Source of the DNA: an uncultured Gammaproteobacteria bacterium
Lineage (GTDB): Bacteria; Patescibacteriota; Microgenomatia; UBA1406; GWC2-37-13
NCBI GenBank assembly: GCA_964530235.1
Contig: CAZGYB010000004.1
Span: 10,668 to 74,667, forward strand
Direction of reading: 5' to 3'
Length of the DNA stretch: 64,000 nucleotides
Below are positions 31,494-47,745 of the stretch, in pieces. Position 1 is the stretch's first letter. Each line of letters begins with the position of its first letter. A model generated the notes under the pieces. It was given only the letters and a program-made list of their open reading frames with translations. It was not told the origin of the DNA and did no database searches. The position numbers were made by a program, and so were the translations under genes.

Positions 31494-31499
31494 ATACAT

Positions 31500-31916: not shown

Positions 31917-31940
31917 TAGAATCACCTGTATAACTTAACT

Positions 31941-32237: not shown

Positions 32238-33660
32238 TTGAGGAATAAAAAAATACTACACTGAGAAGGGTAAAAACATTTGGAACAGTGTAATTAATGA
32301 TAGTTACTATTTTCATCTGTTTTTTTTCAAAAAAACGTATACCGTTCATAAAAAAGAAAATAATTGAAAAAATTGAAGGAAAAATGTACCGAAAATCTTG
32401 ATTGCTTGCATATGGTTCTTTGAAACGGAAGAGCAATAGAAATAGTAACGAAAATAATAGATTCAATAAAAAGAGTAAATAGATTGCCTTATTTTTATAC
32501 CGATACAGAGTAAGGCCGATACTCATAATAATAAGTATGTATAGTAATAGCGCACTTAATATACAGGCGATAATCGATTGGACTGTTAAATTAAACTGAA
32601 ATTCGGCGAACAACAGAGATTTCAGAAAAAATTGCCAAAAATAATTTCTTCCCAGATTGTTGTCCCATGTACTCGTGTACGGTTGTTGAACGAAAAGAAT
32701 CGGGTTAAAAGCGAGAAAGGTTTTCAGGCGATTGCCAACATAAAGATCTTTGTTTATATATATTTCACCGGTTATCCAGTTTGCCCGTGGATTGTTTTTT
32801 AAAACAGAAAGATTCCTATATATGCTCAGGTAAGCTATAAAAACAAGCGTTATTAAAATTATTCCAATAATTAGTTTTTGTGATTTTTTGTGGGAGTAAT
32901 AGTGACTGTGGAATAAGGCAAAGACTCCGAGCAATGGAAGCAAAATGAACCCTGTTTTTTTTGAGAAGAGCGTAACTGCCGTTGTGATAAAAGCGAGAAT
33001 GATATATGGAATTTTTTTTTCTAGAATCCAAAGAAGGAGGAAAAAAAATGTCAGCGAATAAAATAAATAAGAGAACACATCATTTCCAATTCTTACTGAA
33101 TGAATAATTCCTGAGGGCCAAAAAACCAACAAAACTGTCGCGATAATTCTCTGCGAAGTTCCTTTAAATACTTTGAAAAAAATAATGATACCAATAACGA
33201 GCAAACACGAAAAAAAGAAGAGTGAAAAAAGCTGTAGCAGATGGTTAAAGTCCTTTTCAGAGTCTATTGAGAGAAATTTAGCAAACACACCAACAATATA
33301 ATAAAAGGGTGGTTGATGGAATTCCCATCCCTGGTCGGCAGGCGGAAGTTTCGAATTTTCAATAATATAGTTGATATAGTCTAGATGCCCACCGGTTTCC
33401 GTGACATCGTATGTTCGTGTTTTGAAATCGGTATAGCTAAGATATGCAAATCGAATGAGCAAACCAAGTATGAGAATTAAAAAAATAACAATAGGAAGTA
33501 TGTATTTGTTTTGCCGGGTTACTTTTGTTAGCATAAAGGTGTTACACACATAATACTGGAATTTTAGTTTGTTTTTCGAAAGTTTTGTTATTCCAATTTG
33601 ATCAAAAAACTGTATGGGGTATAAAAATATAATATTTGGTTTAGTTATCGTTTTAGTCAT
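32224..33660 (-). CDS. GT-C glycosyltransferase, GT39/ArnT (PMT_2)-like; likely start MLTKVTRQ at 33534
   Basis: About 12 TM helices. A first-loop segment TDFKTRTYDVTETGGHLDYINYI....LPPADQGWEFHQPPFYYIV is typical of the PMT_2/ArnT-like families. The annotated 5' end would overlap the divergent gene by 47 nt. Confidence 0.5.
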   Translation of the reverse strand: MTKTITKPNIIFLYPIQFFDQIGITKLSKNKLKFQYYVCNTFMLTKVTRQNKYILPIVIFLILILGLLIRFAYLSYTDFKTRTYDVTETGGHLDYINYIIENSKLPPADQGWEFHQPPFYYIVGVFAKFLSIDSEKDFNHLLQLFSLFFFSCLLVIGIIIFFKVFKGTSQRIIATVLLVFWPSGIIHSVRIGNDVFSYLFYSLTFFFLLLWILEKKIPYIILAFITTAVTLFSKKTGFILLPLLGVFALFHSHYYSHKKSQKLIIGIILITLVFIAYLSIYRNLSVLKNNPRANWITGEIYINKDLYVGNRLKTFLAFNPILFVQQPYTSTWDNNLGRNYFWQFFLKSLLFAEFQFNLTVQSIIACILSALLLYILIIMSIGLTLYRYKNKAIYLLFLLNLLFSLLFLLLFRFKEPYASNQDFRYIFPSIFSIIFFFMNGIRFFEKKQMKIVTIINYTVPNVFTLLSVVFFYSSTISP

Positions 33661-35056
33661 AGGCTATGTAACCTATTTTCATAACTACGCATATCCGCCC
33701 AACCTTTTCTGGGATGAAAACTATCATATTGCTTCAGCCTACAAATATATACATCATCAGTTTTTTATGGAACCGCATCCGCCCTTAGGCAAGCTTTTTA
33801 TTGCATGGGGGGAGCAGCTACTAAATCCAAACAAAGGAGTTGATACATCAGTTTTATCCTCAACAGACTATATAAAAGATATTCCCAAAGGATTTTCCTT
33901 TGTTGGAGTTCGTTTTTTTCCAGCTTTGTTCGGCTGGCTTTCAGCGCCTCTCTTCTTCCTTATTTTATACGCCCTGTTCCCGCATCTCATTGTTTCCCTC
34001 TTTTTTTCGGGTTTGTATCTGTTTGATAATGCGATGATCGTGCATAGCAGGGGAGCAATGCTTGACAGTACCGGTATGTTTTTTACGCTATTAACCCTCT
34101 TTTGTTTTGTTGTGCTGTATAAACAGAAAAAACTGCCAGTTGTGCGGTACGGGTTATTGGGGTTATGTACTGGTTTGGCACTTTCTGTAAAGCTGAATGC
34201 AGTTGTTTTGGGAATGCTCCTCTTTTTTTTATTGGTTAAGGAAGTTAAACAGGAGCATAAAAGACTATTGACCGCATTATCTCTGAGAATAATTATCTAC
34301 GTATTAACGGTGTCTGTTGTATTAAGCGGGATTTACTATCTGCATATTTCAAACGGCGGTTTTGTTTCAAATGGAAATTACTATGAGGCTTCAGAAAAAC
34401 TTAAATCTCTATTGGTCTCAAAGAAATATGCCTTACCTGAAAACTTCATACCTCAATTTATTGAGCATGTTCGGTTTATTCCTCATTATGAAAAAGGGGT
34501 TCCAAAACTCGACGTCTGCAAACCTGATGAGAATGGCAGTTATCCGCTTGTCTGGCCGTTCGGGAACAAAAGCATAAACTACCGCTGGGAAAAAATGGGA
34601 GAGAAAACAGCATATCTGTATTTGCAGTCAAATCCGGTGATCTGGCTTGTCGGATTGGTTGGAGTATTACTGTCTTTGATTTTGGTTTGTGCACGAATAG
34701 TATTTCGGCTTCCGCTAAAAAACCAAAAATTGTTTACCTGGATACTTTTAGTTACCTCTTTGTATGTTGTTTACATGACCTTAACACTTTCTGTATCAAG
34801 GGTTCTTTATTTATATCACTACTTTACTCCGCTTGTTTTTTCGTTTATTCTCGCTTATCTGCAGATGGTCTATATAGGAGAGGAACAGCTGAAGAAACAC
34901 AAGAAGAAAATATATGCTTTATTGATAGCATTATTTTTATGTATCATTTCGGCTTATCTTTTTTATGCGCCCTTCACTTATTATCAGCCTCTTTCGTTTG
35001 CAGAGTTTCAACAGCGCAACTGGTTTCCGTTCTGGCAGATGAAAGCAATTCAATAA
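33614..35056 (+). CDS. phospholipid-carrier-dependent protein O-mannosyltransferase-type glycosyltransferase (GT39/PMT)
   Basis: FWDENYHIASAYKY...FFMEPHPPLGKLFIAWG is the PMT loop-1 signature (DE...HPPLgK). The protein is polytopic, with a C-terminal 4-TM region. Confidence 0.7.
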   Translation: MGYKNIIFGLVIVLVIGYVTYFHNYAYPPNLFWDENYHIASAYKYIHHQFFMEPHPPLGKLFIAWGEQLLNPNKGVDTSVLSSTDYIKDIPKGFSFVGVRFFPALFGWLSAPLFFLILYALFPHLIVSLFFSGLYLFDNAMIVHSRGAMLDSTGMFFTLLTLFCFVVLYKQKKLPVVRYGLLGLCTGLALSVKLNAVVLGMLLFFLLVKEVKQEHKRLLTALSLRIIIYVLTVSVVLSGIYYLHISNGGFVSNGNYYEASEKLKSLLVSKKYALPENFIPQFIEHVRFIPHYEKGVPKLDVCKPDENGSYPLVWPFGNKSINYRWEKMGEKTAYLYLQSNPVIWLVGLVGVLLSLILVCARIVFRLPLKNQKLFTWILLVTSLYVVYMTLTLSVSRVLYLYHYFTPLVFSFILAYLQMVYIGEEQLKKHKKKIYALLIALFLCIISAYLFYAPFTYYQPLSFAEFQQRNWFPFWQMKAIQ

Positions 35057-35104: not shown

Positions 35105-35992
35105 ATGAAACTGGGATGGCTGAAAATGGAAAAAACTATCGTTTTTGTTGTTGTTTTCATTTCATTCCTCCTGCTCTCTCTTTCCGCACTGCTTTATTTT
35201 CGTTATTTAAGGCTTCCGGTAGCTCCAAGTGTTAAAGCTGCCTGGTCTCCGGCAACTATCTGTACTTTAGTGAAAGAAGATGGGTATGCGAATAAAGTCA
35301 ACCCATCCGCATCATTTGGATCTAATCTTTGGTTGAAAGCGGGGTACGATGCCAGCACCCTTAATCTCGCGTATTTTAAGTTTGACCCAACTCAGTTTAC
35401 CCCACTTTTTATGCGGGCCTACCTGCGGTTTCAGTACAAAGGGGAGAGTACGACTCAAACATGTGATACCAGCTTTGTAGTAAAGAAAATAACCTCAAGC
35501 TGGGCAGAACAGACGCTTACTTGGAACAATAAACCCGCAATGGAGACCTCAGGAATTGCTTCTAAGATAAATATTCCTGTTACAGGTACCTTGAGAACGG
35601 AAAATATTGATATCACAAGTATGTTGCGGAGTAAAACAATACCGTATGGTTTAGTACTTCATGAAGCACGGTATCGTCCGGAAGTCTGTAATACCAATCC
35701 AACAGATCCGAGTTGTTTTACGAATTTGCCATGCATGATGAACATTATTGCAAAAGAGGCGAGTACCGGTACTCAGCCAGCTGCACAAATATGTTTCGAC
35801 ACCTGCTACAAGCACCCGGATGGTGATGCGAACTGCGATGGTCAGTTTACCACTGCGGATTTTGAGCTGTGGCTTTCCTTGTATTTGGGGAATACGAATG
35901 TAACCTGTAACGGTTGCTCTGCGGATTTTAATGATGATAGAAAAGTTGATTTAAAAGATTTTGAGATTTGGAGACGGTCACGTTTTCCGTAA
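35105..35992 (+). CDS. secreted DNRLRE/CBM96-like domain protein with a C-terminal dockerin
   Basis: EDGYANKVNPSASFGSN..L.....LAYFKFDP.....MRAYLRFQY......VVKKITSSWAEQTLTWNNKPAM fits the DNRLRE pattern. The dockerin repeats are GDANCDGQFTTADFELWLSLY and ADFNDDRKVDLKDFEIW. Confidence 0.5.
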   Translation: MKLGWLKMEKTIVFVVVFISFLLLSLSALLYFRYLRLPVAPSVKAAWSPATICTLVKEDGYANKVNPSASFGSNLWLKAGYDASTLNLAYFKFDPTQFTPLFMRAYLRFQYKGESTTQTCDTSFVVKKITSSWAEQTLTWNNKPAMETSGIASKINIPVTGTLRTENIDITSMLRSKTIPYGLVLHEARYRPEVCNTNPTDPSCFTNLPCMMNIIAKEASTGTQPAAQICFDTCYKHPDGDANCDGQFTTADFELWLSLYLGNTNVTCNGCSADFNDDRKVDLKDFEIWRRSRFP

Positions 35993-35998
35993 AAGATT

Positions 35999-37771
35999 TT
36001 GCCGAAAGCTAATTATATGCAATCTAACCAGAGAGTTACACCATTACGAAAAGTACTTATATTAGCCACACTTGCTCTTTCAGTGGCATGTTTTGCTTAT
36101 ATAATGAATCTTTATTTGAGTAGTTCCAAGGCTAGTGCAAGTACGCTTTCTTTTACTTTTGTTCCCGGATCAACCAAAGTAAATATCGGTGAAACCTTCC
36201 ATACGTTGCTCACTATTACTCTTCCTGCAAGTAGTAAAACAAATAAAATATCAGGAATGAAGTTGAAATTACAGATAAGCCCGTATTTGCAATATGTTGG
36301 ATACCGGCAGGTTACTGTGCAGTCCGGTGCTGGTTATTTTACTGTGGTTCCGCACGGCGGATTTGTCTATATTCAGTCTGACGCATCGGTTCAGGAAACA
36401 TTTTTGGCGCCAAAGCCAGATACGCAACTTAGTAATGCAGTCGTAATCGATCTCATTTTAAAAGGGAAACAGGCAGGTGCCGGTATCATTTCGGTAGTGC
36501 CCGCAGAAACTCAGATTGTCGGGCAGACTGGAACCAGTACTATGGATTTTGTATTGCCGAGTGGTGGGGGTTTGAATTCTCCGTCTATTACTGTTGGTTC
36601 TTTTTCAAGCTCATCTTCCAGTTCATCGGTTTCATCTCAATCTTCATCAAGTTCCAGAAGCTCTTCATCCAGTTCACGGTCGAGCAGTTCTTCTTCGAGC
36701 TCGTCAAGTTCTACAAACCAGCTTTGTAATATTGGAACGAGCATGTGTGAAAACGGATGGAGTTTTTTTTGCGAAAGTGATGTCACTAAAAACGATCAAC
36801 CCTTTTGGAGTAGAAGAGGGCCTTGCACGTATGCAACGTGTGCACCAAATGGTAAGAGTTGTGGTGATCATTTTTCAGGAAAGTATGAACGCTGTTCTTT
36901 TGATTCTCGTGATGAAAGAACCTATTGGTTTGGATATCCAAATTCCTCATGTGAAGTTGTTAGTTCATGTGTACCTCCAGCTTGGTCGCAAGGTTATGCG
37001 GTTGAATGTATGCAGATAGGCTCAGTATATTGGAGAGTTTCTAACGGAACATCTACACAATCAAACTGTTCCCATTACCGATTTAAGTGCGATAGTGAGA
37101 TCACTTATCAGTGTTTAAAAGATCTTTCGGGGTCAACTTGGTGGGTGAATCAGGGTAGCATTTGTTCTGCCATTGGTTTTCCAGGCGGAAGTTCTTCTAG
37201 TTCATCAAGCTCATCCAGTGGGGGAGGAGCGCGATCGCAGGTTGGCTTACTGTTCAAGGCAAAGTTTCCTGATATTGCTCCTTCAGTCAATCTGATTCCC
37301 GGTGTGCAGGTGGAGTGGTATGACGGCGACCAGCTTTCCTGTGCAGACTGTAGCACCTTTGTTTCACTGGTCCGGGACGGCGCATATTTTAAAACAAACC
37401 AGCCGGTTTCGTTCAGTGTGAATACCGGAAGACAGCATACTGTGAAAATAAAAGCGGGAAATACAATCCGCCGGTCTTTTTCAGGCATTCAGTTTACTGC
37501 AAATCAGACATTAGATTGTACTGGGGGAACTATGCCTTCCGCTTGCGGTGAGCTCAAAACAAAAATCGAAACAAAACCCCTCTGGTCCGGCGACACCGAT
37601 CGCTTTAATAATTATTCAGACAGTTATAGTAAAATTGACTCGGTTGATTTGCAGATGCTTTCTATGAAATACGGTACCACATCATCAGAAGCAGACTTTA
37701 ACAGTGACGGACAAGTTGATATTATTGATTTAGATATTTTAGGACGCAACTACGGGTTGCAGGGGGACTAA
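35999..37771 (+). CDS. secreted cohesin-like + Cys-rich + dockerin protein (start more likely ATG 36017)
   Basis: In order: TM, a cohesin-like module (LSFTFVPGSTKVNIGETFHTLLTITLPA...ISGMKLKLQISP..L.YVGY...), a ~45-aa poly-Ser linker and a ~170-aa Cys-rich region. The C-terminal dockerin is ...ADFNSDGQVDIIDLDILGRNYG. Confidence 0.6.
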   Translation: MPKANYMQSNQRVTPLRKVLILATLALSVACFAYIMNLYLSSSKASASTLSFTFVPGSTKVNIGETFHTLLTITLPASSKTNKISGMKLKLQISPYLQYVGYRQVTVQSGAGYFTVVPHGGFVYIQSDASVQETFLAPKPDTQLSNAVVIDLILKGKQAGAGIISVVPAETQIVGQTGTSTMDFVLPSGGGLNSPSITVGSFSSSSSSSSVSSQSSSSSRSSSSSSRSSSSSSSSSSSTNQLCNIGTSMCENGWSFFCESDVTKNDQPFWSRRGPCTYATCAPNGKSCGDHFSGKYERCSFDSRDERTYWFGYPNSSCEVVSSCVPPAWSQGYAVECMQIGSVYWRVSNGTSTQSNCSHYRFKCDSEITYQCLKDLSGSTWWVNQGSICSAIGFPGGSSSSSSSSSSGGGARSQVGLLFKAKFPDIAPSVNLIPGVQVEWYDGDQLSCADCSTFVSLVRDGAYFKTNQPVSFSVNTGRQHTVKIKAGNTIRRSFSGIQFTANQTLDCTGGTMPSACGELKTKIETKPLWSGDTDRFNNYSDSYSKIDSVDLQMLSMKYGTTSSEADFNSDGQVDIIDLDILGRNYGLQGD

Positions 37772-39382
37772 ATGAAATTAAAACAACGCATAGTATTATC
37801 CGGTATTGTTGGGGTGGTAACTTTGGTTGCAGGGTTTGTATTTTACTACACTCAGCTTCGGACATACACAAAAGCAGCACCCGGCGTGCCTTCTGTTTTC
37901 TTTGCGGTGAATCCTGCAATCTCATCTTCAACCGGCAATTTTGACCTAATACTCAAAGTAAATCCGAATGGTGCTTCATTTAATGCATTTGATTTGCGGG
38001 TCATGTATGATCCGGCAAAAACGGGTTTTCAGAATGAGTCAGATCTGAACGCAAATATTGTTGAGATAAACCCGAATCGAGTTATTAGTAGTCAGTCGCG
38101 GATCGATGCACAGACGCATAAAATTACCGTTGTCGGGTTGCGGGAGGGCGGTGCTAACTTCAGCGGATCATCTGATATAGAAATTGTGAAAATTACCATG
38201 AAACTTCTTCCCGGTGCTGGTCTTCCGGTCGTATTTACCTGGGACAACGGAACAAAACTGGGAGCGGATATTCAGATTGAACGGGTAAATGGTTCATTCC
38301 CTGAGTCTGCGGGCGGAAGTTCGTCTTCTGGAGATCCGAATAAGCCGGGAAGTATTTTTATGAGCTCTGATCGGACTCAGTATCAGGTGGGTGATCATCT
38401 CGATCTTTTTGCATATATTTCGACAGAGGGCGAGCAGGTCAAAACATCGGATATTTACCTCCCTTTTAACTCCGCTTCGGTTGATTTTCAGCGTGTCGGT
38501 GGGATAAGCGCAAATGTAGAAATACTTCCGGGGACCGGGTTCAGTCAGAGTGATTCGGTTGTCGCCTTAAGTGGGAATGTTATTCGCATCACGCTTATTA
38601 CTCCAACTTCGGGTGGTAACCCGGTTCCGGTTGCAGGAAACCGGTTGAAAGTTGCCAAAATTTTGTTTAAAACCAAAAGAACTGGGGACATTTCATTTAC
38701 CGTTGATCAAACAAGGAGCAATTTATACACCTTGTTGAACAGGAATATTTTGGGCCAGACACCCGGATACACAATTACTGTTGAAGAAGAATCCGGTGGT
38801 GGAGGCGGAGGGGGAAGCTCATCTTCATCCGCTCCTGAAACAGTACCAAGCAATGGAGACTTGCTCAATATAAACTCCAATATTTTTGATCAAAGCCCGT
38901 TTCGGTATGAACAGCAGATCGTACTTGATAAAGCAACCTATACTTTGACTGCAAGCGCGCGCACCTATATTTCGCGGGGAAGAGGTGTGTTGGTTACAGT
39001 CGCATGCGCAGAGCAAAATTGCGGAAACGGTAAAACGCTGAATGCAATCATTGCAGAAACACAGAAATTTCCAGTTTCCTCACAGTATCAGGAACAGACA
39101 GTGACGTTTGATATTAATGATGCAACAAAAAATAAAAGATACACAGTGCGGATTTTTGCAGAAGATGGTTCTGAGGCTGATTTTGACATGGTTTCTTTGC
39201 AGAATCAGTGGGGAGGGGAGCAGTTGCAGAATGAGCAGTTCGGATCAAGCGAACAGACGCCGTTTGCCCGCAAGCATCCGGACCTGTGGGATATAGATGA
39301 GGCGGGGAGAATTTACGGAACTGTTGATACAAGTAAAGGCAATCAGGGAGCATTATATATTAACAGCGTTTCACGGGAATGA
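37772..39382 (+). CDS. secreted protein with two cohesin-like modules and a CBM4_9-like jelly-roll domain
   Basis: The two cohesin-like modules are FDLILKVNPNGASFNAFDLRVMYDPAKTGF...IEIVKITMKLLPG and LDLFAYISTEGEQVKTSDIYLPFNSASVDF...VAKILFKTKRTGDISF. The C-terminal ...ATYTLTASARTY...RYTVRIFAEDGSEADFDMVSLQ is homologous to the middle of 39379..41328. Confidence 0.6.
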   Translation: MKLKQRIVLSGIVGVVTLVAGFVFYYTQLRTYTKAAPGVPSVFFAVNPAISSSTGNFDLILKVNPNGASFNAFDLRVMYDPAKTGFQNESDLNANIVEINPNRVISSQSRIDAQTHKITVVGLREGGANFSGSSDIEIVKITMKLLPGAGLPVVFTWDNGTKLGADIQIERVNGSFPESAGGSSSSGDPNKPGSIFMSSDRTQYQVGDHLDLFAYISTEGEQVKTSDIYLPFNSASVDFQRVGGISANVEILPGTGFSQSDSVVALSGNVIRITLITPTSGGNPVPVAGNRLKVAKILFKTKRTGDISFTVDQTRSNLYTLLNRNILGQTPGYTITVEEESGGGGGGGSSSSSAPETVPSNGDLLNINSNIFDQSPFRYEQQIVLDKATYTLTASARTYISRGRGVLVTVACAEQNCGNGKTLNAIIAETQKFPVSSQYQEQTVTFDINDATKNKRYTVRIFAEDGSEADFDMVSLQNQWGGEQLQNEQFGSSEQTPFARKHPDLWDIDEAGRIYGTVDTSKGNQGALYINSVSRE

Positions 39383-41328
39383 ACAGAAACATAAATATAA
39401 ATCTAATTAATAATATTCTCAGAATTTTTTTTGGTGTTCTTGTTTTAAGTTTTTTGATGATAGGAATAGGTAGCTATTGGGAAGTGAAAGCTGCCTGTGA
39501 GCCTCGTGAATGTGATAGCGGTAATTCATGTCCAGAGGGATTTCATTGTACTGCATTTTGTTGTGTTCCAGATTCTGGGGGTAGTTCAAGCTCTGCTGGG
39601 AATAGCAGTTCTGCCGGAAACTCGTCATCGCAAAATAATTCTTCAAGTTCTCAGGGAGGTGGGGGTAGTTGTAGCAAAAATGAATGGAATTCATGTCAGG
39701 GTGGATCGAGACAGTGTGTTACGAGAAATAAACCCGAATGTGATGGCGGAGGATGTGATTGCTATTCTAACGATTGTAATGATGGAGCAGTTGAGGATTG
39801 TAGTGGGGGTGGAAACAGTTCCAGTAGCTCAACTGGTGGTTCAAGTTCGTCAGCAGGAGGGAGCAGTTCTTCAGGCGGGTCAAGCTCATCGAGAAGTTCA
39901 AGTAGCAGCAGCGGAGGCGGAGGAAGTTCTTCATCTGGAGGTGGTGGTAATAGTTCAAGTTCATCAGGACCGACCTGTACGGAGTACCCGTTTAAAGAAG
40001 CAAGTATTGTACCGTATTCAGTCAGTCCGGGAGGAGATGTTATGGTTACCTGCAATTATGGAAAAGACCTTGACTGTATTCAGGTTTCCGGAGGCGGGCT
40101 ATCAAATTGTATTTACCGGTATTACGATGAAGGAAATGCTTTTTTCCTCTGCAAAGCATCGCAGGATGGAGGAGTGTATAACAGCGCAAAGTGTAAACTC
40201 ATTGCAAATACATCTGATAAATGTTGCGCAAGCACCAATCCGGCTGGATCATATAAGGTTCTTTCCAATGCGCCCCATTATAGTCAGCGGATGCGCTTGC
40301 CTGCGGGGACATATACCCTCTCATCCCGTATTCAGCCACTGATTGTGAAAGGAAAAGGAGTCGAGGTTCGGCTCGTCTGCCGGTCGAGCAGTTGTTTTTC
40401 TTCGTATAAAGAAAATTCGGTCATCGGTAAATTGAGTTATTCCGAATCTGCAACGTTTATTGAAAAAAGTCTTCAGGTGCTTATTCCCGGGCAGGGCGCT
40501 AACAAAGACTATGCGGTGATGATTGCGGTTGCAGACGGTTCTGAAGCTTTTGTTGATTCGGTAAAAATGATGCTCGGATCAACAAACTATATCGTAAACA
40601 GCGAATTTAGTTCGGTTGGAAGCACAACTGTCAGTTATCTTCAGCCGGTTTCCTGGAATATTGCCAATAATCGTCTGGGGCTATACTATGGAATGGCTTA
40701 TCAGACTGTGCCAAAAACGATTTTTACACCGCCCGGAGGTGGGGGAGGAGGCGGGGGTGGAGGTGGTGGTGGGGGAAGTGGTCCGCCGGTAGCTATGAAA
40801 CTGCAGTTGAAATTAAAGTTTCAGGGCATTACAAAGAAACCTCTCAACTCGGACCCGATTTCTGTCAAAATAAAGGTGGGGACAGGTGCAACAGCGCAAG
40901 CTGGTTCGTTTACTCCGGATGAAAATGGTGTTTGGAGCGGTTCGGTGTCGGTGAATGCGCCGGCCGGTAGCGGGCATGTAGTCTATGTTAAAGGACCAAA
41001 ACACCTGCAGAAAAAAATTTGTGATATAAACCCGACTGAAAGCCCAGCTGGCACATATCATTGCTCATCAGGTAAAATTACGCTTACCGCAGGGACGAAC
41101 AACCTTGATTTTTCACAGATTCTTTTGCTGGCAGGTGATCTTCCGGATGCATCCGGAAATCAGAGCGGGATTATTGACACATATGATATCTCCTCAGTCC
41201 GCCAGAATTTAGGGACAACAGACACTGCAAAAATTGCAGTCGGAGATCTGGATTTTGACAAAGGAATTACAACGCAGGATTGGTCATTGGTTGTCCAGTC
41301 GCTCGGAATAAAGTATGATGAAGAATAA
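39379..41328 (+). CDS. secreted Cys-rich + CBM-like + Ig-like/dockerin-like protein
   Basis: The ATGA start overlaps the upstream stop. The protein has a TM, Cys-rich modules (CEPRECDSGNSCPEGFHCTAFCC...) and S/G linkers. A CBM-like domain (AGTYTLSSRIQP...DYAVMIAVADGSEAFVDSVKM) and a G15 linker follow. The C-terminal module is homologous to that of 25491..28163. Confidence 0.6.
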   Translation: MNRNININLINNILRIFFGVLVLSFLMIGIGSYWEVKAACEPRECDSGNSCPEGFHCTAFCCVPDSGGSSSSAGNSSSAGNSSSQNNSSSSQGGGGSCSKNEWNSCQGGSRQCVTRNKPECDGGGCDCYSNDCNDGAVEDCSGGGNSSSSSTGGSSSSAGGSSSSGGSSSSRSSSSSSGGGGSSSSGGGGNSSSSSGPTCTEYPFKEASIVPYSVSPGGDVMVTCNYGKDLDCIQVSGGGLSNCIYRYYDEGNAFFLCKASQDGGVYNSAKCKLIANTSDKCCASTNPAGSYKVLSNAPHYSQRMRLPAGTYTLSSRIQPLIVKGKGVEVRLVCRSSSCFSSYKENSVIGKLSYSESATFIEKSLQVLIPGQGANKDYAVMIAVADGSEAFVDSVKMMLGSTNYIVNSEFSSVGSTTVSYLQPVSWNIANNRLGLYYGMAYQTVPKTIFTPPGGGGGGGGGGGGGGSGPPVAMKLQLKLKFQGITKKPLNSDPISVKIKVGTGATAQAGSFTPDENGVWSGSVSVNAPAGSGHVVYVKGPKHLQKKICDINPTESPAGTYHCSSGKITLTAGTNNLDFSQILLLAGDLPDASGNQSGIIDTYDISSVRQNLGTTDTAKIAVGDLDFDKGITTQDWSLVVQSLGIKYDEE

Positions 41329-41359
41329 TCGCATATTAGTTAGAAATTAACATATAATT

Positions 41360-41989
41360 ATGGAAGGACAGAATATGACAACGCAACAGCAGAACAGCCA
41401 CAAGGGAGTGTTTATTCTTTTTATTGTTCTTATTGTAATTTTTCTCGGGACAGGTATCTTTCTGCTTGCGCAAAAAACAAAGCGTGATAAAGACACAAAA
41501 CAGGCCGTTTCCTCGATGAATAAACCGATTGAACCAAGTATTACACCAACGCCAACTCTTATCCCATACGCTAAAAAAGGTTCAATGTATTTGTTTGCTC
41601 CGGAAAGTACGGTAAAAGAGGGGCAGAGTATTACTCTTCAGGTACAGGCAACTTCGGACAAGTCAGACATCGTTGGGTTTGATATGGTTGTGGCGTACGA
41701 CGAAAGCATACTCGAATTTAAATCTGCGGATTCCGCAGTATCTTCATTCAAGTCTTATGTATATCCGCGATCTGGTTATGTATCAGTAACGATGATTAAA
41801 TCACTCCAGGAAACCCAAGCGACGGTTTTTGACAAAACCGATATTGCAACTGTTACCTTTACTGCAAAGAAAAAGGGGAAAACAATCGTAGACCTTACCG
41901 CAAAAGGCAACGACAGCACCAAGTTTGCGGATAACAATGCAAATGTAACATACCCTGATACCAACCAGATTGATCTTGAAATTAATTAG
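41360..41989 (+). CDS. membrane-anchored cohesin-like protein
   Basis: TM (GVFILFIVLIVIFLGTGIFLLA) followed by EGQSITLQVQATSDKSDIVGFDMVVAYDESILEFKSA...IATVTFTAKKKGKTIV. Confidence 0.55.
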   Translation: MEGQNMTTQQQNSHKGVFILFIVLIVIFLGTGIFLLAQKTKRDKDTKQAVSSMNKPIEPSITPTPTLIPYAKKGSMYLFAPESTVKEGQSITLQVQATSDKSDIVGFDMVVAYDESILEFKSADSAVSSFKSYVYPRSGYVSVTMIKSLQETQATVFDKTDIATVTFTAKKKGKTIVDLTAKGNDSTKFADNNANVTYPDTNQIDLEIN

Positions 41990-42012
41990 GAAGTGACAGA
42001 TAATAAATCAAC

Positions 42013-42696
42013 ATGAAGCAGACTTTCGTAACGGTTTTTTCAGCACTTTTTCTGTTTCTTTTTCTCCCTATTTTTTTTCAGGGAGGTTTGGTCCATGCTG
42101 CATATCTGAAATTTGATCAAACTTCTGTTTCGGTTGCAGTTGGAGCAACCTATCAGGCACAGGTGGTTGTTGATGCAGGTACGGATCAAATTACTTCAAC
42201 TGACGTGTGGGTAGTGTATGATACCGCAAAACTAGAAGCGCAAACGGTTTCAGCTGGAACTTTTTTCCCAACGGTAACAAACAACATTTCATCTGGCAAG
42301 GTCTATATTGCAGGGCTTATTGTTGATCCAGGGACTTATAAAACCGGTTCGGGAACTGTTGCAACCATAACATTCCGTGGGGTTTCAAACGGAACAACTT
42401 CACTGACTTTTGACTGTCGGACTGAGGTTAGCAACTCATCAAAAATAATTAAAAATGATGTCAATGCTACAAACGTTATTGTCTGTAGCCAAAATGGGAC
42501 ACAGTCAGTAAACGTCGGAGGAACCTCGGGGGGTTCGAGTAACCCAACTTCAACACCCGCCGTATTAGGCGTGGCGCCGACTGTTATTCCAACCCAGCTT
42601 CCCCAATCGGGAATAGCGGAACATTTCCATAAATTTATAGGACCGGGGATCGTACTATTTCTTATCGGCATATCACTGCGGTTTTTACTGTTATAG
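42013..42696 (+). CDS. cohesin-like surface protein with an LPxTG-like sorting signal
   Basis: Signal peptide, then LKFDQTSVSVAVGATYQAQVVVDAG.DQITSTDVWVVYDTAKLEAQTV...GTVATITFRGVSNGTTSLTFD. The C-terminus is LPQSG, a hydrophobic stretch, then RFLLL. Confidence 0.6.
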   Translation: MKQTFVTVFSALFLFLFLPIFFQGGLVHAAYLKFDQTSVSVAVGATYQAQVVVDAGTDQITSTDVWVVYDTAKLEAQTVSAGTFFPTVTNNISSGKVYIAGLIVDPGTYKTGSGTVATITFRGVSNGTTSLTFDCRTEVSNSSKIIKNDVNATNVIVCSQNGTQSVNVGGTSGGSSNPTSTPAVLGVAPTVIPTQLPQSGIAEHFHKFIGPGIVLFLIGISLRFLLL

Positions 42697-42710
42697 AGAT
42701 ATATTTTCCC

Positions 42711-43511
42711 ATGGACAAAAAAAAGAAAATTATCAAAATTGCTTCAATCGTCGTTGGAGTCCTTCTTGGACTGCTTGTTCTTTTTGTAGGATTTACCCTC
42801 GCACAGCGGTATTTTTTAAAAGCTTCTGATACTGCACCGCGTGATGTGCTTACTGCCTCAGTGACTCAAAATAGTGCGAAAGTGACCTGGACAACCGATC
42901 AGGAATCGCAGGCAGTTGTTGAATACGGAACATCGCCAACTGCGCTTAATTTTTTTGCGCCGGAATCTGCAAAGTCAAAAACACACAGCGTTGATCTTAC
43001 TCTGCTTTCACCCGCAACAACCTATTATTTTCAGATCCGCATCGGTGATAAAAAGTATGACAATGCCGGCGTGCCGTGGTCAATTACGACAAAAACAAAA
43101 GACGGTGCATCAACAGGAACCGGCACACCGGGGCCGACAAATCCTGCAGGAACGCCAACTCCCGGAACAGTACCAGAATCAGGCGGAACAGCAGTTCCGC
43201 AACCGACACAGGTTTTGGTTGTGCCCAATATTCCGACAGCGACCCCGTACGTGGTTCCAACCCTTGCTTCATACGTCTGTGGTGAAACAAGCTGTGACGC
43301 AATCTGCCGGAAAATCGGCACTACCTGCAGTACACAGGATTGGATGAAGTCAGGGTGCGTTGGCAAGTTGACGCTTGGGACCTGTGCGACCATCCAGCCT
43401 ACAAATACGCCAACACCTACAGTAACCCCGAGTACGACCCCGACTCCCACTGCAACGCCAACTCCGACAAATACACCGACTCCAACCAATACCCCAACCC
43501 CAACGCCGTAA
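42711..43511 (+). CDS. membrane-anchored FN3-like protein with a Cys module and a Thr/Pro-rich tail
   Basis: TM, then VTQNSAKVTWTTDQESQAVVEYGTSP...ATTYYFQIRIG (FN3/PAP-N-like). The tail is [36 protein letters not shown]. Confidence 0.5.
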   Translation: MDKKKKIIKIASIVVGVLLGLLVLFVGFTLAQRYFLKASDTAPRDVLTASVTQNSAKVTWTTDQESQAVVEYGTSPTALNFFAPESAKSKTHSVDLTLLSPATTYYFQIRIGDKKYDNAGVPWSITTKTKDGASTGTGTPGPTNPAGTPTPGTVPESGGTAVPQPTQVLVVPNIPTATPYVVPTLASYVCGETSCDAICRKIGTTCSTQDWMKSGCVGKLTLGTCATIQPTNTPTPTVTPSTTPTPTATPTPTNTPTPTNTPTPTP

Positions 43512-43582: not shown

Positions 43583-44032
43583 ATGTCAGATACAAAAAAA
43601 TCTTCTAAATTCGGCCTTGGGTTATTATTTGGTACGCTTCTGGGTGGGATTACGGCACTGTTTCTTTCGCCGACATCCGGTCCGGAAAACAGGGAAGCGG
43701 TTGCTAAGAAGGTAAAAGAACTGGAAAAGCTCTTGGCAGATCATGAACTGGATGAAAAAATACGAGAGGTTTTTGGCGAAGTGACTGAGGAGACAAAAGC
43801 GCTGTATAAACAGGCGAAAAAAGAATTGATCAAACGGCTGTCTGAACTCAAAGAATCAGTAGAAAGTATTGACCGGGAAAAATATATTGAAGTAGTCCAC
43901 GAAACCGTTGAAATCCTCAAAAAAGAAGCCCGCAGAGAGGTAAAAGATATGGAACGGTTGAAGGCACAACTGTTAACCGAGTGGAAAAAACTCAGACCCG
44001 AACCAAAATTGATCGCAAAGAAAAAGAAATAA
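43583..44032 (+). CDS. YtxH domain-containing protein
   Basis: FGLGLLFGTLLGGITALFLSPTSGPENRE is followed by a long charged helix, the typical YtxH layout. Confidence 0.7.
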   Translation: MSDTKKSSKFGLGLLFGTLLGGITALFLSPTSGPENREAVAKKVKELEKLLADHELDEKIREVFGEVTEETKALYKQAKKELIKRLSELKESVESIDREKYIEVVHETVEILKKEARREVKDMERLKAQLLTEWKKLRPEPKLIAKKKK

Positions 44033-44035: not shown

Positions 44036-45580
44036 TCAAAGCGATTGACTGATCCAGTCTGCAATTGGTTCAAGATTAAAAGAAGACCAGTGTGAATCTC
44101 CGATCTGGTAGAGCGTTGCGCCCAAAACATACGGATCCTGATTGATTTGGCTATTAAACCAGCTGAGCCAGTTGGCATAGTCAGAAAGAGATCCGCGCAC
44201 ATTCCATCCGCTTGTTTTCGGGTCTCCATTCCGGTCAACGCCTGCTTCAGAAAGAATAAACGGGAGCGAGGCAAGCGATCCGTCAAGTTCGGAAATCGCC
44301 TGATGGATCTGGCGGTAGCGCAGTGAGGTCTGTATTTCCTGCCCAAGATCAGTGGTATAGTTTAATGTATAGGCATGATAGCAGAATGTGCCCTGGTTTC
44401 GGTTTAACTCCTGAAGAGCCGGTAGAAATGGTGCAAGATTGTTTTTTATTTCCGCATATCCGCCGGGAGGGTTCCCGACAGGAATGCTTCCAATACAGGT
44501 TTTTAAGCCCCGACTTCGATAGAGCGAAATGAGTTCTTTCCAAAAGGAATTAAGCCACGCAGTGTTTACCGTGCTTTCCCATCCGGGTGTGTTGTCAAGT
44601 TCATTTGGGGTCTCGATATAATTAAACAGCTCAATATTTTGCCCGAGCATAGTTAATGCGGGTTGTACAATCGTCAGATAAAAAACATTCGCAGACAACA
44701 CAGGATCTTGAATTAACGTAAACCGAAAACCGCTTGTTCCTAAATAAATTCGCAGAACCGAGATGCCGGTTGGATTCAAGCGTCTGAAATCTAAAGCAGC
44801 CTGAAGTGTCGGATTTATATGCGGGTCCATAACTTTAATAATTCGGGGCTTTGCAGATACTATTTTTTGTGCTCCCGCAGAGTACTGGGAGAGAATATAC
44901 ACACCTATTTTTCCTTTGAGAAGTCCGGGCGGGGGAAGGGGGGTGGTGGGTTGAGGAGCGGGGGTGAGTGTTGGTATAACAAAATCTTCTTCGGTTTGAT
45001 CGTATTCGGGAACCTCAAAAAAAACAGAGAAAAGTTTCGTGAGAAGAGTGAACGGTTTTTGATAATCAGAGGTGGATGAGGTTGAACTGTTGGCGGAAGA
45101 TTGAGGAAATAACGGTTTCATCTGCACATCACGCGCAGTTGCAATTTCCCGTTCCTGTTTTTGCGCTTCCTTGGAAAGCGATGTTTCATAGGATTTTTTA
45201 CCGTATTGATTGCCGAGTACCGTAAGCGGGAAGCTGGTTTGAATTGAGGATTTTTCTTCTGCAGAATAGGTTGAGTTTGCTTGCGTTTTTAATGAAGAAT
45301 TGGATGAATTTTGTGACAGGTCGTTTTTAGAGTTTGTTTTTTGGTTAACTGCATCAGATTTAATTTTTTTTGAAGAGGAAGTTTGTCCAATTCCTTCAGA
45401 CTCTTCTTCGCCGGCTCGGTCGATTCTTTTAACACGAAAGACCCGCTGAAGAAGATTTTGAGAGGAATCATCCTGACCAGAGTACTGTGGCAGTTTTATG
45501 AACCAAAAGAAAAGGATAAGAATGAAGAGAATGACAACTGAAACTGCAATAAGTATAGCAAGGCTTCCCGGTTTGCTCAT
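44036..45580 (-). CDS. membrane-anchored protein with a TIM-barrel glycoside-hydrolase-like (clan GH-A-like) C-terminal domain
   Basis: N-terminal TM and a Ser/Gln-rich linker. The C-terminal ~300 aa carry a candidate acid/base YIETPNELD and nucleophile FILSEAGVD. The spacing looks GH-A-like by eye only. Confidence 0.4.
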   Translation of the reverse strand: MSKPGSLAILIAVSVVILFILILFFWFIKLPQYSGQDDSSQNLLQRVFRVKRIDRAGEEESEGIGQTSSSKKIKSDAVNQKTNSKNDLSQNSSNSSLKTQANSTYSAEEKSSIQTSFPLTVLGNQYGKKSYETSLSKEAQKQEREIATARDVQMKPLFPQSSANSSTSSTSDYQKPFTLLTKLFSVFFEVPEYDQTEEDFVIPTLTPAPQPTTPLPPPGLLKGKIGVYILSQYSAGAQKIVSAKPRIIKVMDPHINPTLQAALDFRRLNPTGISVLRIYLGTSGFRFTLIQDPVLSANVFYLTIVQPALTMLGQNIELFNYIETPNELDNTPGWESTVNTAWLNSFWKELISLYRSRGLKTCIGSIPVGNPPGGYAEIKNNLAPFLPALQELNRNQGTFCYHAYTLNYTTDLGQEIQTSLRYRQIHQAISELDGSLASLPFILSEAGVDRNGDPKTSGWNVRGSLSDYANWLSWFNSQINQDPYVLGATLYQIGDSHWSSFNLEPIADWISQSL

Positions 45581-47745
45581 AGTTTTCTTCCGTATTTTTC
45601 TTTGGAAAGAGCAATTATTTTGGTGCGGTTTTCGTTTTTGAGGGAAGGAAGGGGAAGGGTAGTTGCTGGGAATGGTGCCGAAGTCATGTTATCGATAGAC
45701 AGTTTCATGACGGTCTCAAACTTACCAAGTGAAACCAGATCATTTTCCTCATACAGTTCGCCGTATTCTTTGCTTAAGGTATATGCATCCCGTGCGCCAA
45801 CTACAAATGAAATAAGAGTACCTACGTTGCCAAAAATAGCCCGTTCAATGTCTTCGTCAAGCTGTTCGATGTACTGATTGGTTAGACACAAAGAGAGACG
45901 AAATTTTCGCGCTTCAGAAAGAATTTTAATAAATGAGTTTGTCGCAAAGTTTTGAAACTCATCAACATACAGAAAAAAATCTTTTCTATCCTGTTCTTTG
46001 ACAAACGAGCGGTTCATAGCAGCAAGTTGGATTTGGGTGATGATCATGGCGCCGAGAAGCGATGCGTTGTCTTCGCCCAGTTTTCCCTGCGAAAGATTGA
46101 GAATAAGAATTTTGCCTGAGTTCATAATATCCTCAAGGTCAATACTTGATTTGGATTTGCCGACAATATTACGTATCATGCGGGAAGTGACAAACTGTCC
46201 GACTTTATTTTGAATCGGCGAAATTGCTTCTGCTTTGAGCCGGTCAGGCATTTTTGCAAACTCTTTTTCCCAGAATGCTTTAAGTACCGGGTCATTTAAA
46301 CTGCTGACTACTTTTTTCCGGTATTCGGCATGGGAGAGAAGATTCAGTACATCAGGGAGCGTTGAGCCGGGAGTTTCAAGAAGCGTCATAATGACATTTC
46401 GTAAAATATATTCAAGACGAGGCCCCCAGCTTTCTTTATAGAGTTTGCTGAAAATAGAGACAATGCCGGATGAAATAAGGTCTTTATGCTGTTTGTTTTT
46501 TATTTCCAATACGTTGAGTGAAAATGGACGGTCCACATCAAACGGTTCAAGGTATACTACATCGTTTATTCTCCGTTTTGGAATATAGTCGAGGATTGTT
46601 TCCGATAAATCGCCGTGTGGATCAATGATCCCGACCCCTCGGTCTTTCCGGATATCATCAATTGCCATGTTGGCAATGAGAGTGGATTTCCCGGCACCGG
46701 TTTTTCCGATGATATAGATATGTTTACGTCGGTCTGCGTCTTTAATGCCAAAAATGGTTTCTTTATTGCGGAACTCTGTTTTGGCAAAAAAATTGACTTC
46801 TTTTTTGTGTTCATCTGAAATATTGTCAGAAACAGGCAGATTTTCCGGAGGTTCGCCGATGAGTGTTTTTCCCCAGCTTATGTTTTTAATACCGGCTAAA
46901 AGATAGCCGGGGGGATGCCAGAGGGTGGCAAGCTCCTGCGAATTGAGTATTTGATTCCGGTGTTCAAAATAAGAAAGTTTCCGTTTTTTTATGCGTGCAA
47001 TAAGCCGTTCTTTGAAAAAAAGAGGCCGTTTAAACACAAACTGGTTGCCTTCGCCAAGTGAAAAGCTTCCAAATGTGCCAGCAAGCTGACTGACAAACGG
47101 CATGGGATTAAGCCCATTAGTGTTTGTTCCTGCAATTAGGCGAATTCCAACTTTTCCACCCTGAAACGTTGCTTTTTTCATAATGATCATTTTCTGCGGG
47201 TTCATGGTGTATTTCATCGCGTTTTCGTCATACACTTGAAGCCCAGCATTTTTCACCGCCAAGTCCTGCCAGGCAAAATGAGGGGGTGTTACAACAATCT
47301 GAATAGCCATTTTCAGTTGTGGAGGCTGTTTTGATAAAAATCCGACTAAAGCAGACAACGGATCAACATCTTTGAAATCAAAGTACGTTTTAATCGGGAG
47401 ATACGAGTATGAGTTTAAGGCAACTTCACCAACCGCAACTGAGCGAGAATTGAAAATAATGTCCATAGGATCTGTTGTTTTCGCAACTTTAGATTGAGGG
47501 AATGAAGAGGTGACGAGGCTTTGAATAAGAGTTTCACTTTCCTTTGGAGTGGTTATGTAAAAATAGACGAGTTGATTGAGCAGATATATTTCAAATGCAT
47601 ACGTTTTTGGGTGAACAATAAGAGCCCGTTTGAGGAGTGGAAGATACGGATAGGGAAGAACCGATGCAAAAATCTGAGTTGCTGACTCAATCGGCGTTTC
47701 ATCCTCTTTCGGATTCCGGACATGTAAATGAGATAACACAGGCAT
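45577..47745 (-). CDS. VirD4/TraG/TraD-like P-loop ATPase (type IV coupling-protein-like)
   Basis: Walker A IIGKTGAGKSTL, GIIDPHGD, Walker B FFLYVDEFQNF, and ELATLWHPP upstream, as in T4SS DNA-binding-domain ATPases. A 4-nt overlap links it to the downstream gene. Confidence 0.6.
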   Translation of the reverse strand: MPVLSHLHVRNPKEDETPIESATQIFASVLPYPYLPLLKRALIVHPKTYAFEIYLLNQLVYFYITTPKESETLIQSLVTSSFPQSKVAKTTDPMDIIFNSRSVAVGEVALNSYSYLPIKTYFDFKDVDPLSALVGFLSKQPPQLKMAIQIVVTPPHFAWQDLAVKNAGLQVYDENAMKYTMNPQKMIIMKKATFQGGKVGIRLIAGTNTNGLNPMPFVSQLAGTFGSFSLGEGNQFVFKRPLFFKERLIARIKKRKLSYFEHRNQILNSQELATLWHPPGYLLAGIKNISWGKTLIGEPPENLPVSDNISDEHKKEVNFFAKTEFRNKETIFGIKDADRRKHIYIIGKTGAGKSTLIANMAIDDIRKDRGVGIIDPHGDLSETILDYIPKRRINDVVYLEPFDVDRPFSLNVLEIKNKQHKDLISSGIVSIFSKLYKESWGPRLEYILRNVIMTLLETPGSTLPDVLNLLSHAEYRKKVVSSLNDPVLKAFWEKEFAKMPDRLKAEAISPIQNKVGQFVTSRMIRNIVGKSKSSIDLEDIMNSGKILILNLSQGKLGEDNASLLGAMIITQIQLAAMNRSFVKEQDRKDFFLYVDEFQNFATNSFIKILSEARKFRLSLCLTNQYIEQLDEDIERAIFGNVGTLISFVVGARDAYTLSKEYGELYEENDLVSLGKFETVMKLSIDNMTSAPFPATTLPLPSLKNENRTKIIALSKEKYGRKL

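Follow-up and report, generated by a model that had tools for sequence, protein, structure and literature searches.

The question raised by a seven-gene operon (p1 to p7; nt 35105-43511) of an uncultured bacterium is what purpose cohesin- and dockerin-type modules, linked to surface anchors and carbohydrate-binding module (CBM)-like domains, would serve in a member of the Candidate Phyla Radiation (CPR). The operon was analysed within a stretch of 64,000 nt, hereafter the window, from contig CAZGYB010000004.1 of the assembly GCA_964530235.1 (positions 10,668 to 74,667 of the forward strand), and coordinates follow the numbering of the window unless preceded by a locus name. A sequence-only reading had described a set of anchor, scaffold and dockerin-bearing cargo proteins without glycoside hydrolases, in what was guessed to be a CPR-type genome. 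As an architecture this set stands, with no catalytic domain found in its dockerin proteins, and the guess fits, as the organism-named homologues of the encoded proteins belong to Candidatus Roizmanbacteria or 'Patescibacteria group' metagenome-assembled genomes (MAGs). The operon probably encodes a non-enzymatic cohesin-dockerin surface assembly system of a Roizmanbacteria-like (Microgenomatia, CPR) bacterium, likely for attachment. Its module pattern is far beyond chance and is repeated in the syntenic loci of other genomes.

Organisation of the operon and secretion segments of its products

The seven genes are located on one strand (+) and are tightly packed or overlapping, as first described: p1 (35105-35992; 295 aa), p2 (35999-37771; 590 aa, TTG start), p3 (37772-39382; 536 aa), p4 (39379-41328; 649 aa), p5 (41360-41989; 209 aa), p6 (42013-42696; 227 aa) and p7 (42711-43511; 266 aa), separated in this order by 6, 0, -4, 31, 23 and 14 nt. 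Consensus scans for promoters and terminators did no better than chance and were uninformative; the operon call is therefore based on gene packing and synteny. All seven products have a hydrophobic N-terminal secretion segment, mostly with a [KR]-A-[AST] motif after it that is compatible with Sec export.

The operon unit is larger than first stated, and also takes in an upstream glycosyltransferase gene and a downstream gene for a small membrane protein. The former (33614-35056, +; 48 nt upstream of p1) codes for a PMT-family protein O-mannosyltransferase (Pfam PMT E=1.7e-32, PMT_4TMC E=5e-18). The latter (43583-44032, +; 71 nt downstream of p7), possibly the last gene of the unit, codes for a YtxH-like protein (Pfam YtxH E=1.2e-8) that, at 35.7 bits, falls below the cutoff of 37.5 bits. 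Gene tables were read for four syntenic loci (L002, L004, L005 and L006); the plus-strand PMT gene is syntenic in three of the loci with tables read, occupying the same place in L002 and L005, and the YtxH gene is syntenic in three of the four. A second PMT-type (GT-C) gene (32224-33660, -) is divergently oriented, its 5' end overlapping that of the plus-strand PMT gene by ~47 nt.

Cohesin modules

Five cohesin-type modules, of which one is weakly supported, are encoded in four proteins, with one each in p2, p5 and p6 and two in p3. The p5 protein, described earlier as a transmembrane segment joined to a cohesin, has a single N-terminal transmembrane segment (aa ~16-38), a Pro/Thr linker and a cohesin (aa 82-201; nt 41603-41962) that scores 45.1 bits (E=1.5e-11) against Pfam Cohesin (PF00963), above the gathering score of 24.1 bits. 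It is proposed to be a putative membrane-tethered cohesin of ambiguous topology. The p6 protein comprises a signal peptide, a cohesin (aa 37-162; nt 42121-42498) scoring 23.1 bits, just under the same cutoff, a Ser/Thr/Pro linker and a sorting signal (aa 196-227; nt 42598-42693). The p6 family numbers 322 database matches, with PF00963 recorded on most of the 120 matches listed, and can be aligned with p5 (hhalign, 90%, E=1.5e-6). Searches of the PDB with p3, p5 and p6 as single sequences returned either nothing or a marginal match of p6 to 4ums (ScaB cohesin; E=0.019), and profiles were needed.

The p3 protein, which has no Pfam match of its own, consists of an N-terminal hydrophobic segment, two modules (module 1, aa 37-179, nt 37880-38308; module 2, aa 190-340, nt 38339-38791) and a CBM-type jelly roll (aa 347-536; nt 38810-39379), and lacks a dockerin. 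Five of its relatives (P0005-P0009) match Pfam Cohesin. An AlphaFold2 model built from a ten-sequence alignment (pLDDT 60 on average and 60-85 in each of three beta domains) fits the nine-stranded beta-sandwich jelly-roll fold of cohesins. Solved cohesins dominate its Foldseek matches, with single cohesins giving TM-scores of 0.65-0.79 normalised to the target (TMt; 6kgf_C 0.79, 2vo8 0.79, 4ums 0.71) and the Acetivibrio cellulolyticus type II cohesin dyad 3l8q giving E~1e-8. Profile-profile comparison joins module 2 to the p6 family (hhalign, 96.8% probability, E=2e-10). The earlier description of p3 as two cohesins and a CBM4_9-like domain thus stands for module 2 and, at fold level, for the jelly roll; it is weak for module 1, and the jelly roll matches no CBM family profile.

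In p2, a secretion segment is followed by a divergent cohesin (aa ~40-201; nt 36116-36601), poly-Ser, a Cys-rich domain (aa 241-394), a second poly-Ser and a C-terminal X-module and dockerin (XDoc) dyad (aa 416-590; nt 37244-37768). Pfam is blind to the N-terminal cohesin, comparison of the single sequence with the p6 family by hhalign was also null, and a word-indexed homologue search with full-length p2 recovered p2 alone, probably because of the poly-Ser tracts. An exhaustive HMMER search recovered five distant relatives with a common N-terminal module and a dockerin match (C-terminal in four of the five). One of these five, P0137, scores 29.2 bits against Pfam Cohesin over the homologous region, above the cutoff, and a profile built from six sequences links the module to the cohesin family of p6 (89.7%, E=1.9e-6, 118 columns). 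The order of cohesin, poly-Ser, Cys-rich domain and dockerin first read from p2 is upheld in this manner, the cohesin through relatives and profile and the dockerin, as an XDoc, through a profile search of PDB sequences.

Dockerin and X-dockerin modules

Dockerins are borne by three operon proteins (p1, p2 and p4) and by at least three further proteins on the contig. The p1, p2 and p4 modules each have two repeats of ~22 residues with an EF-hand-like calcium loop and a helix, and the strings GDANCDGQFTTADFELW and ADFNSDGQVDIIDLDILGRNYG, quoted in the sequence-only reading along with LPQSG...RFLLL, are all present. The p1 dockerin is a plain two-repeat module (aa 238-292; nt 35816-35980; loops DANCDGQFTTAD and DFNDDRKVDLKD) without an X module, which is matched by a local dockerin hidden Markov model (HMM; E=1.8e-6) and, in BLAST, by the dockerin protein encoded at 59261 (E=0.002). 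In p2 and p4 the first calcium loops are extended and type II-like, while the second loops are DFNSDGQVDIID and DLDFDKGITTQD, respectively. Over its last ~175 residues, p4 is clearly homologous to the C-terminal part of the 25491-28163 protein (BLAST E=4e-32) and to the 59261-60397 protein (E=3e-6).

A profile of six aligned XDoc modules, taken from the window and one Roizmanbacteria locus, was searched against PDB sequences and matched 5k39_B/5m0y (Clostridium thermocellum type II X-dockerin; E=6e-10), two chains named 'Cellulosomal scaffoldin' (4wi0_B, E=2.8e-8; 4u3s_B, E=4.4e-8), presumably A. cellulolyticus XDoc modules, and 2b59_B (CipA X-dockerin; E=3.6e-5). The alignments with 4wi0_B and 4u3s_B span profile positions 34-172, taking in the Ig-like X module and the dockerin and reproducing the extended first loop. 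Dockerin_1 is matched by five of the six aligned modules (best E=8.8e-10), and the calcium-loop residues and the X-dockerin dyad are conserved among them. By these profile matches the C-termini of p2, p4 and the 25491 protein are predicted to be type II-like XDoc dyads. The XDoc type of p2 and p4 therefore points to the anchoring and adhesion branch of such modules, as in the ScaE-CttA pair, rather than to enzyme recruitment.

The 25491-28163 gene (+) codes for a region of ~650 aa, without a Pfam or PDB sequence match, followed by a paralogue of the p4 XDoc (aa 712-890; nt 27624-28160; local XDoc HMM E=8e-69). The 59261-60397 (-) product has an Ig-like module and a canonical dockerin (aa ~40-200; nt 59798-60280), a Thr/Pro linker and a Cys-rich C-terminus; its dockerin can be aligned with the XDoc family and, at 37 bits (E=3.8e-9), lies above the Pfam Dockerin_1 (PF00404) cutoff of 22.9 bits. 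A second adaptor with both cohesin and dockerin, of 376 aa, is encoded ~5.3 kb past the window end (L011:15224-16354; Dockerin_1 31.2 bits, Cohesin 23.5 bits). The gene for this adaptor is preceded, with a 10 nt overlap, by that for an 818 aa protein of no assigned family (L011:12777-15233).

Pfam detects no catalytic domain in these six dockerin proteins, even at E<=1, and glycoside hydrolase (GH), polysaccharide lyase (PL) and carbohydrate esterase (CE) domains are absent from p1, p2, p4 and the 25491, 59261 and L011 376 aa proteins. A cellulosome in the strict sense holds dockerin-bearing carbohydrate-active enzymes on a multi-cohesin scaffoldin; here no dockerin-linked GH, PL or CE was found and two is the largest number of cohesins in any one protein, so that the operon is not classed as a cellulosome. 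Nor is p3 a classical primary scaffoldin, as it lacks a dockerin. It could still be supposed that the operon forms part of a degradative, cellulosome-like complex, in which dockerin-bearing enzymes encoded elsewhere dock onto p3, p2, p5 and p6: the architecture parallels that of cellulosome gene clusters, CBM-like modules are present, at least three dockerin proteins are encoded outside the operon, including the one with the ~650 aa N-terminal region without a family match, and the adjacent 44036-45580 (-) gene, which has no Pfam or PDB sequence match, has no assigned family. Set against this are the absence of catalytic domains from the six dockerin proteins, the presence of only five cohesins and the p2 and p4 dockerins, which are of the anchoring/adhesion XDoc type and not the enzyme-borne type I. 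Reduced genomes are, moreover, typical of CPR bacteria, in which a large enzyme repertoire would on general grounds not be expected, and a degradative complex is considered unlikely.

The p6 sorting signal

The C-terminus of p6 reads ...TQLPQSG-IAEHFHKFIGPGIVLFLIGISL-RFLLL, where LPQSG is followed by a 22-residue stretch ending in a transmembrane segment. The LPxTG-like sorting signal, already noted from the sequence, recurs in the family, with LPx[ST]G located 26-28 residues from the C-terminus in all 120 homologues among the matches listed. The commonest forms among these 120 are LPQSG (43), LPQTG (26), LPRTG (11) and LPKSG (9). After the motif, the p6 relatives have a polar stretch, a transmembrane segment, a single R/K and three to five hydrophobic residues, and L, P and G form invariant alignment columns inside a variable linker. 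Some family members bear the JGI label 'LPXTG-motif cell wall-anchored protein', and 11 of 30 p6 relatives weakly match the sortase-dependent surface protein family NF053819 (best E=5.8e-5), while three of the 30 weakly match TIGR01167. An LPXTG-like pentapeptide, a hydrophobic segment and a charged, if atypical, tail are thus all present in p6, so that the predicted sorting signal is well supported, and p6 is proposed to be a putative wall-anchored cohesin.

Candidate sorting signals occur at the C-termini of two further proteins in the window. The Cys-rich product of 21216-22169 (-) contains very long TPTPTR repeats and has a C-terminal PxSG motif followed by a terminal transmembrane segment without a basic residue, which may represent a second, degenerate sorting signal. 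The DUF11/CLIPPER-repeat surface protein encoded at 56218-56976 (-) ends in ...ATPKAGPEMGLVLLAGQIGMIGAGLKLTMTRRK, with a transmembrane segment and basic tail preceded by a non-LPXTG motif, and is a candidate for another sorted surface protein.

CBM-like, Cys-rich and FN3 modules

The main domain of p1, located after the secretion segment and followed by a Cys-rich spacer, is a CBM96/DNRLRE domain (aa 57-186; nt 35273-35662; Pfam CBM96 E=6.5e-12, NCBIfam DNRLRE_dom E=4e-17), so that both this domain and the two-loop dockerin first read from p1 are present, the latter below the Pfam threshold. The founding member of CBM96 binds alginate (PMC9971899). The p4 protein has a secretion segment, a Cys-rich N-terminal module, a poly-Ser/Gly tract, a jelly roll (aa ~263-440; nt 40165-40698), poly-Gly and an XDoc (aa 475-648; nt 40801-41322), and is a candidate cargo or adhesin. 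It had been described as Cys-rich modules, the CBM-like domain of p3 and an Ig-like plus dockerin-like module: a domain of ~180 residues is indeed common to p3 and p4 (BLAST E=3e-11), and the C-terminal end is refined to an XDoc. The Cys-rich regions of p2 and p4 have no family match.

A model of the jelly-roll domain alone, which excludes the conserved last ~50 residues, has a core pLDDT of 77-96. In structure it comes closest to a porphyran-binding CBM, CBM4, CBM16, CBM61 and a module that binds hyaluronan (E=1e-4 to 1e-3, TMt 0.45-0.55), with matches including 8xmz (E=1e-4) and the CBM4 structure 1gui (E=3e-4). The p3 and p4 jelly rolls have no Pfam match and belong to no CBM family by profile, the likeness lying at fold level; the modelled domain accordingly resembles a CBM4/CBM16-like jelly roll at that level.

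The p7 protein comprises an N-terminal transmembrane anchor, an FN3-like domain (aa 42-125; nt 42834-43085), a six-Cys module (nt 43275-43385) and a Thr/Pro tail (nt 43395-43508), in agreement with the transmembrane segment, FN3 domain and Thr/Pro tail recognised earlier (Pur_ac_phosph_N E=9.4e-11, fn3 E=3e-4). In each of the four syntenic loci with tables read, the gene after p6 is of p7 size, with Pur_ac_phosph_N recorded in three of them.

Conservation and variation among syntenic loci

An identical copy of p3 is found in an NCBI contig of 137,891 bp and in Logan assemblies, and a p3 profile scan of genome contigs recovered four species representatives only. In a Roizmanbacteria MAG (L002) the order PMT, variable gene(s), p3, p4, p5, p6, p7 and YtxH is kept, with orthologue identities of 37% (p3), 46% (p4), 34% (p5), 64% (p6) and 56% (p7). 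The gene order also occurs, with variations, in five further distinct loci, making six other loci in all. Three of the records involved (L008, L009 and L010) have Roizmanbacteria-type synteny though titled 'uncultured Gammaproteobacteria bacterium', an apparent placeholder or mislabel. Across loci, module identity is highest for p6 (57-60%) and the p4 XDoc (51-59%) and lowest for the p3 cohesins (26-37%). The similarly high conservation of p6 and the p4 XDoc prompts the guess that these two are binding partners.

The first cargo position is variable: the window has CBM96-dockerin and then cohesin-Cys-XDoc, L002 has Laminin_G_3-XDoc, and L004 has PT-HINT with a weak dockerin match followed by cohesin-XDoc. 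The former of the two L004 proteins (L004:3196-4518; 440 aa), encoded on a 1.14 Mb contig, has an N-terminal pretoxin-HINT domain and a weak C-terminal dockerin match, while a p4-type protein of the same locus (L004:7241-9364; 707 aa) has an N-terminal Hint domain, a jelly roll and an XDoc, suggesting autoprocessing or toxin-type heads on dockerin-tagged proteins.

The conservation also bears on whether the modules pair at all. They might instead serve a structural role, as beta-sandwich and EF-hand-like domains of wall or envelope proteins (S-layer, matrix) that act independently and are clustered through common secretion and PMT glycosylation. Many non-cellulosomal cohesin and dockerin modules are without a demonstrated partner (Peer et al. 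2009, cited in PMC10066038), and several of the module scores reported here are near or under curated thresholds. Cohesins and XDocs occur together in the operon at every syntenic locus examined, however, and architectures combining cohesin and dockerin recur; the calcium-loop residues and the X-dockerin dyad are conserved, and the XDoc stays constant while the domains N-terminal to it are exchanged, as expected of a docking tag. Clustering of unpaired structural domains is thus held to be improbable.

Proposed surface assembly and its weak points

In the cohesin-dockerin surface assembly favoured here, a sortase encoded elsewhere in the genome would attach p6 to the cell wall, while p5, and perhaps p3, would be held by their N-terminal transmembrane segments. 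Judging from module identities, p4 and p2, through their XDocs, and p1, through its dockerin, would dock in a calcium-dependent manner onto the cohesins, and p2, with both a cohesin and a dockerin, would serve as an adaptor that lengthens the chain. The CBM-like jelly rolls, the CBM96/DNRLRE module and the Cys-rich modules would be displayed at the surface, the poly-Ser and Thr/Pro linkers may be O-glycosylated by the PMT enzyme, and the displayed heads would adhere to a surface that bears glycans, for instance the envelope of a host cell, a particle or an extracellular polymer. By analogy with known adhesion modules, the purpose is likely adhesion and not polysaccharide degradation.

Several observations weigh against this assembly. 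As regards the anchors, the window encodes no sortase by Pfam on all open reading frames (ORFs) of at least 120 aa or by a TLxTC motif scan. None was found within ~10 kb past each window edge (about 84 kb in all) or around four p6 relatives, each in a 20 kb neighbourhood with its gene table read. The p6 protein of the window matches none of the curated LPXTG models (TIGR01167, NF-series), and its tail, with one Arg and four hydrophobic residues, is atypical. In p5 orthologues the N-flank of the transmembrane segment is neutral and the C-flank basic, and for this reason an outward-facing p5 cohesin is not guaranteed. As regards the binding modules, p1, p2 and p4 score 15.9, 15.1 and 12.1 bits against Dockerin_1, each under the cutoff, and module 1 of p3 is weak by sequence (E=1.6e-4 against module 2, E=0.005 against p6) and is graded as a probable cohesin. 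A CBM-like fold is not proof of glycan binding, and the N-terminal region of the 25491 protein could hide an enzyme.

Other CPR lineages are reported to have sortases and sorted proteins (PMC3812714). Two syntenic proteins encoded upstream of the operon, of 138 aa and 98 aa, were considered as cryptic sortases and rejected, being a small transmembrane protein and a polytopic membrane protein, respectively, with no Pfam match above cutoff.

Relation to known cohesin-dockerin systems

The closest analogue of the operon would best be sought in the ScaE-CttA adhesion module of Ruminococcus flavefaciens, where the sca gene cluster has the order scaC-scaA-scaB-cttA-scaE. In this species the sortase-anchored cohesin ScaE and CttA, with two CBMs and an XDoc, hold the cell on cellulose (PMC4266597). 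Like ScaE, p6 is a single cohesin with a C-terminal sortase motif encoded toward the end of the cluster and, like CttA, p4 is encoded upstream and has a CBM-like module followed by an X-module and dockerin. The ScaE-CttA complex serves attachment to the substrate rather than catalysis, the same role as is proposed here. The host is, however, a CPR bacterium and not a Firmicute, multi-cohesin enzyme-loading scaffoldins (ScaA/ScaB) are not evident, the p6 family motif, unlike that of ScaE, alternates between LPxSG and LPxTG with a single-Arg tail, and the sequence identity of the operon modules to cellulosomal modules is very low. The transmembrane-tethered cohesin p5, the dockerin-less p3 with its double cohesin and CBM-like domain, the Cys-rich modules, the PMT glycosyltransferase and the conserved p7 with its FN3 domain and Thr/Pro tail go beyond the ScaE-CttA module.

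The X module, dockerin and extended first loop also resemble those of the type II pairs of Clostridium (Acetivibrio) thermocellum and A. cellulolyticus (2b59, 5k39/5m0y, 4wi0, 4u3s, 3l8q), with the p3 model resembling the A. cellulolyticus dyad 3l8q. Clostridial anchoring scaffoldins have SLH domains and are joined to an enzyme-loaded primary scaffoldin, whereas here small proteins without enzymatic domains carry the XDoc, and an LPXTG signal or a transmembrane segment takes the place of the anchor. The Clostridium perfringens toxin and glycosidase modules (2w1n, 2jh2, 2vo8, 2ozn) likewise represent cohesin-dockerin pairs outside cellulose degradation, and C. perfringens cohesins are among the top structural matches of the p3 model. 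Non-cellulosomal modules (Peer et al. 2009) are mostly scattered or located on enzymes, in contrast to the dedicated, syntenic, enzyme-free operon with anchors, adaptor and cargo described here. The Enterococcus EF2685/EF0750 family (NCBIfam NF053819) also consists of small surface proteins with an LPXTG-type C-terminus, although the p6 protein of the window gives no match to it and the relationship is remote.

All of the parts are of known kinds, and public pipelines already annotate some family members as cohesin or LPXTG proteins. In the literature searched on cohesins and dockerins in CPR, Patescibacteria, OP11 and Microgenomates, passing mentions of dockerin-like proteins were found but no description of this operon. 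What is new is an enzyme-free, sortase- or transmembrane-anchored cohesin-XDoc display operon that is conserved in a CPR lineage, with its function inferred. For the attachment of ultra-small CPR bacteria to hosts and surfaces, type IV pili and, recently, Pam pili are the main candidates. With five cohesins, several dockerins and an LPXTG anchor, the operon provides a defined, conserved and tractable further candidate, and pairwise binding of its modules can be assayed in vitro with no need for a culture. It would carry the design of a sortase-anchored cohesin and XDoc adhesion over from the Firmicutes of the rumen into a lineage that is deeply divergent and has a reduced genome, in enzyme-free form. 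This lends support to a view of adhesion and surface display, as opposed to cellulolysis, as a possible general role of cohesin-dockerin modules. Divergent cohesin-dockerin pairs could also supply orthogonal parts for synthetic protein assembly.

A more specific possibility, put forward tentatively, is that the operon forms a plug-and-play host-recognition platform of an episymbiotic CPR bacterium. The p6 and p5 cohesin anchors would be constant and the XDoc-tagged heads interchangeable, these being CBM-like jelly rolls, CBM96, Laminin-G and Cys-rich modules and, in relatives, Hint/pretoxin-type domains. Were this true, host range or attachment specificity could be changed by swaps of cargo genes on a constant anchoring chassis. 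XDoc-cohesin bonds have very high mechanical stability, and this strength would be exploited in such a platform.

Neighbouring genes and further features of the window

Downstream of the operon, 45577-47745 (-) codes for a coupling ATPase of the VirD4/TrwB-like kind, for which the precomputed table also lists DUF8128; it is syntenic in the window, L004 and L005. Two large proteins of no assigned family are encoded beside it (47822-49573 and 49557-52577, both -), the 1006 aa one having a 1086 aa homologue in L002. In Gram-positive conjugation systems, PrgA, PrgB and PrgC are LPXTG adhesins. That the operon supplies the adhesins of a type IV secretion or conjugation-like apparatus, or forms a surface fibre or pilus like the CPR Pam pilus, is suggested by the syntenic ATPase and by the existence of CPR-specific pili of Ig-like/beta-sandwich pilins with reported remote Roizmanbacteria homologues (bioRxiv 10.64898/2026.03.03.709456), but is very unlikely given that the ATPase block is not adjacent in L006, where housekeeping genes follow p7, that Pfam finds no VirB4, VirB6 or relaxase domains near the operon, and that the p3 model matches cohesins best. 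Identity with the Pam pilus (PamA/PamB) itself was rejected, as its two-domain pilins (beta-sandwich, linker strand and truncated Ig) joined by donor-strand exchange, its PapD-like transmembrane chaperones and its ATP-synthase neighbourhood (bioRxiv 10.64898/2026.03.03.709456) are not seen here.

Upstream of the PMT genes lies a three-gene block (29247-32237, +) coding for a Cys-rich/poly-Ser secreted protein (570-750 aa), a protein with a single transmembrane segment (130-200 aa) and a polytopic protein of exactly 98 aa. The block is syntenic in every locus with a gene table read, none of the three products has a Pfam match above cutoff, and it may belong to the same surface system as the operon. 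An HTH_17 gene (~28888-29109, -) is located before the block, and in most of these loci a small HTH_17/MerR gene likewise comes before it on the opposite strand.

Close to the window start, two ORFs of 673 and 928 aa (1033-3054 and 3128-5914, both -) are 99% identical over their N-terminal 253 aa and then diverge, and this pair could represent a recent duplicate or a cassette-swapped secreted protein. The 3128-5914 product has a weak match to the HopA1 effector family, and a large serine recombinase is encoded nearby (7086-8714, -). A giant ORF of 2604 aa (L012:2227-10041), without a Pfam match on record, lies directly upstream of the window start, and its end falls within the first gene called in the window.

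The accessory protein of diversity-generating retroelements belongs to the bAvd/23S_rRNA_IVP family. A small four-helix protein of this family is encoded beside tRNA-Thr at ~57768-58076 (+; L011 gene table), with no reverse transcriptase seen near it, and another member of the family is encoded next to the VirD4-like ATPase in L004. Finally, an Rfam LOOT RNA (RF03000) is found at full length and above the gathering score (64.4 bits) at 10234-10365 (+), in the intergenic region just upstream of the ORF at 10397-10828 (+).

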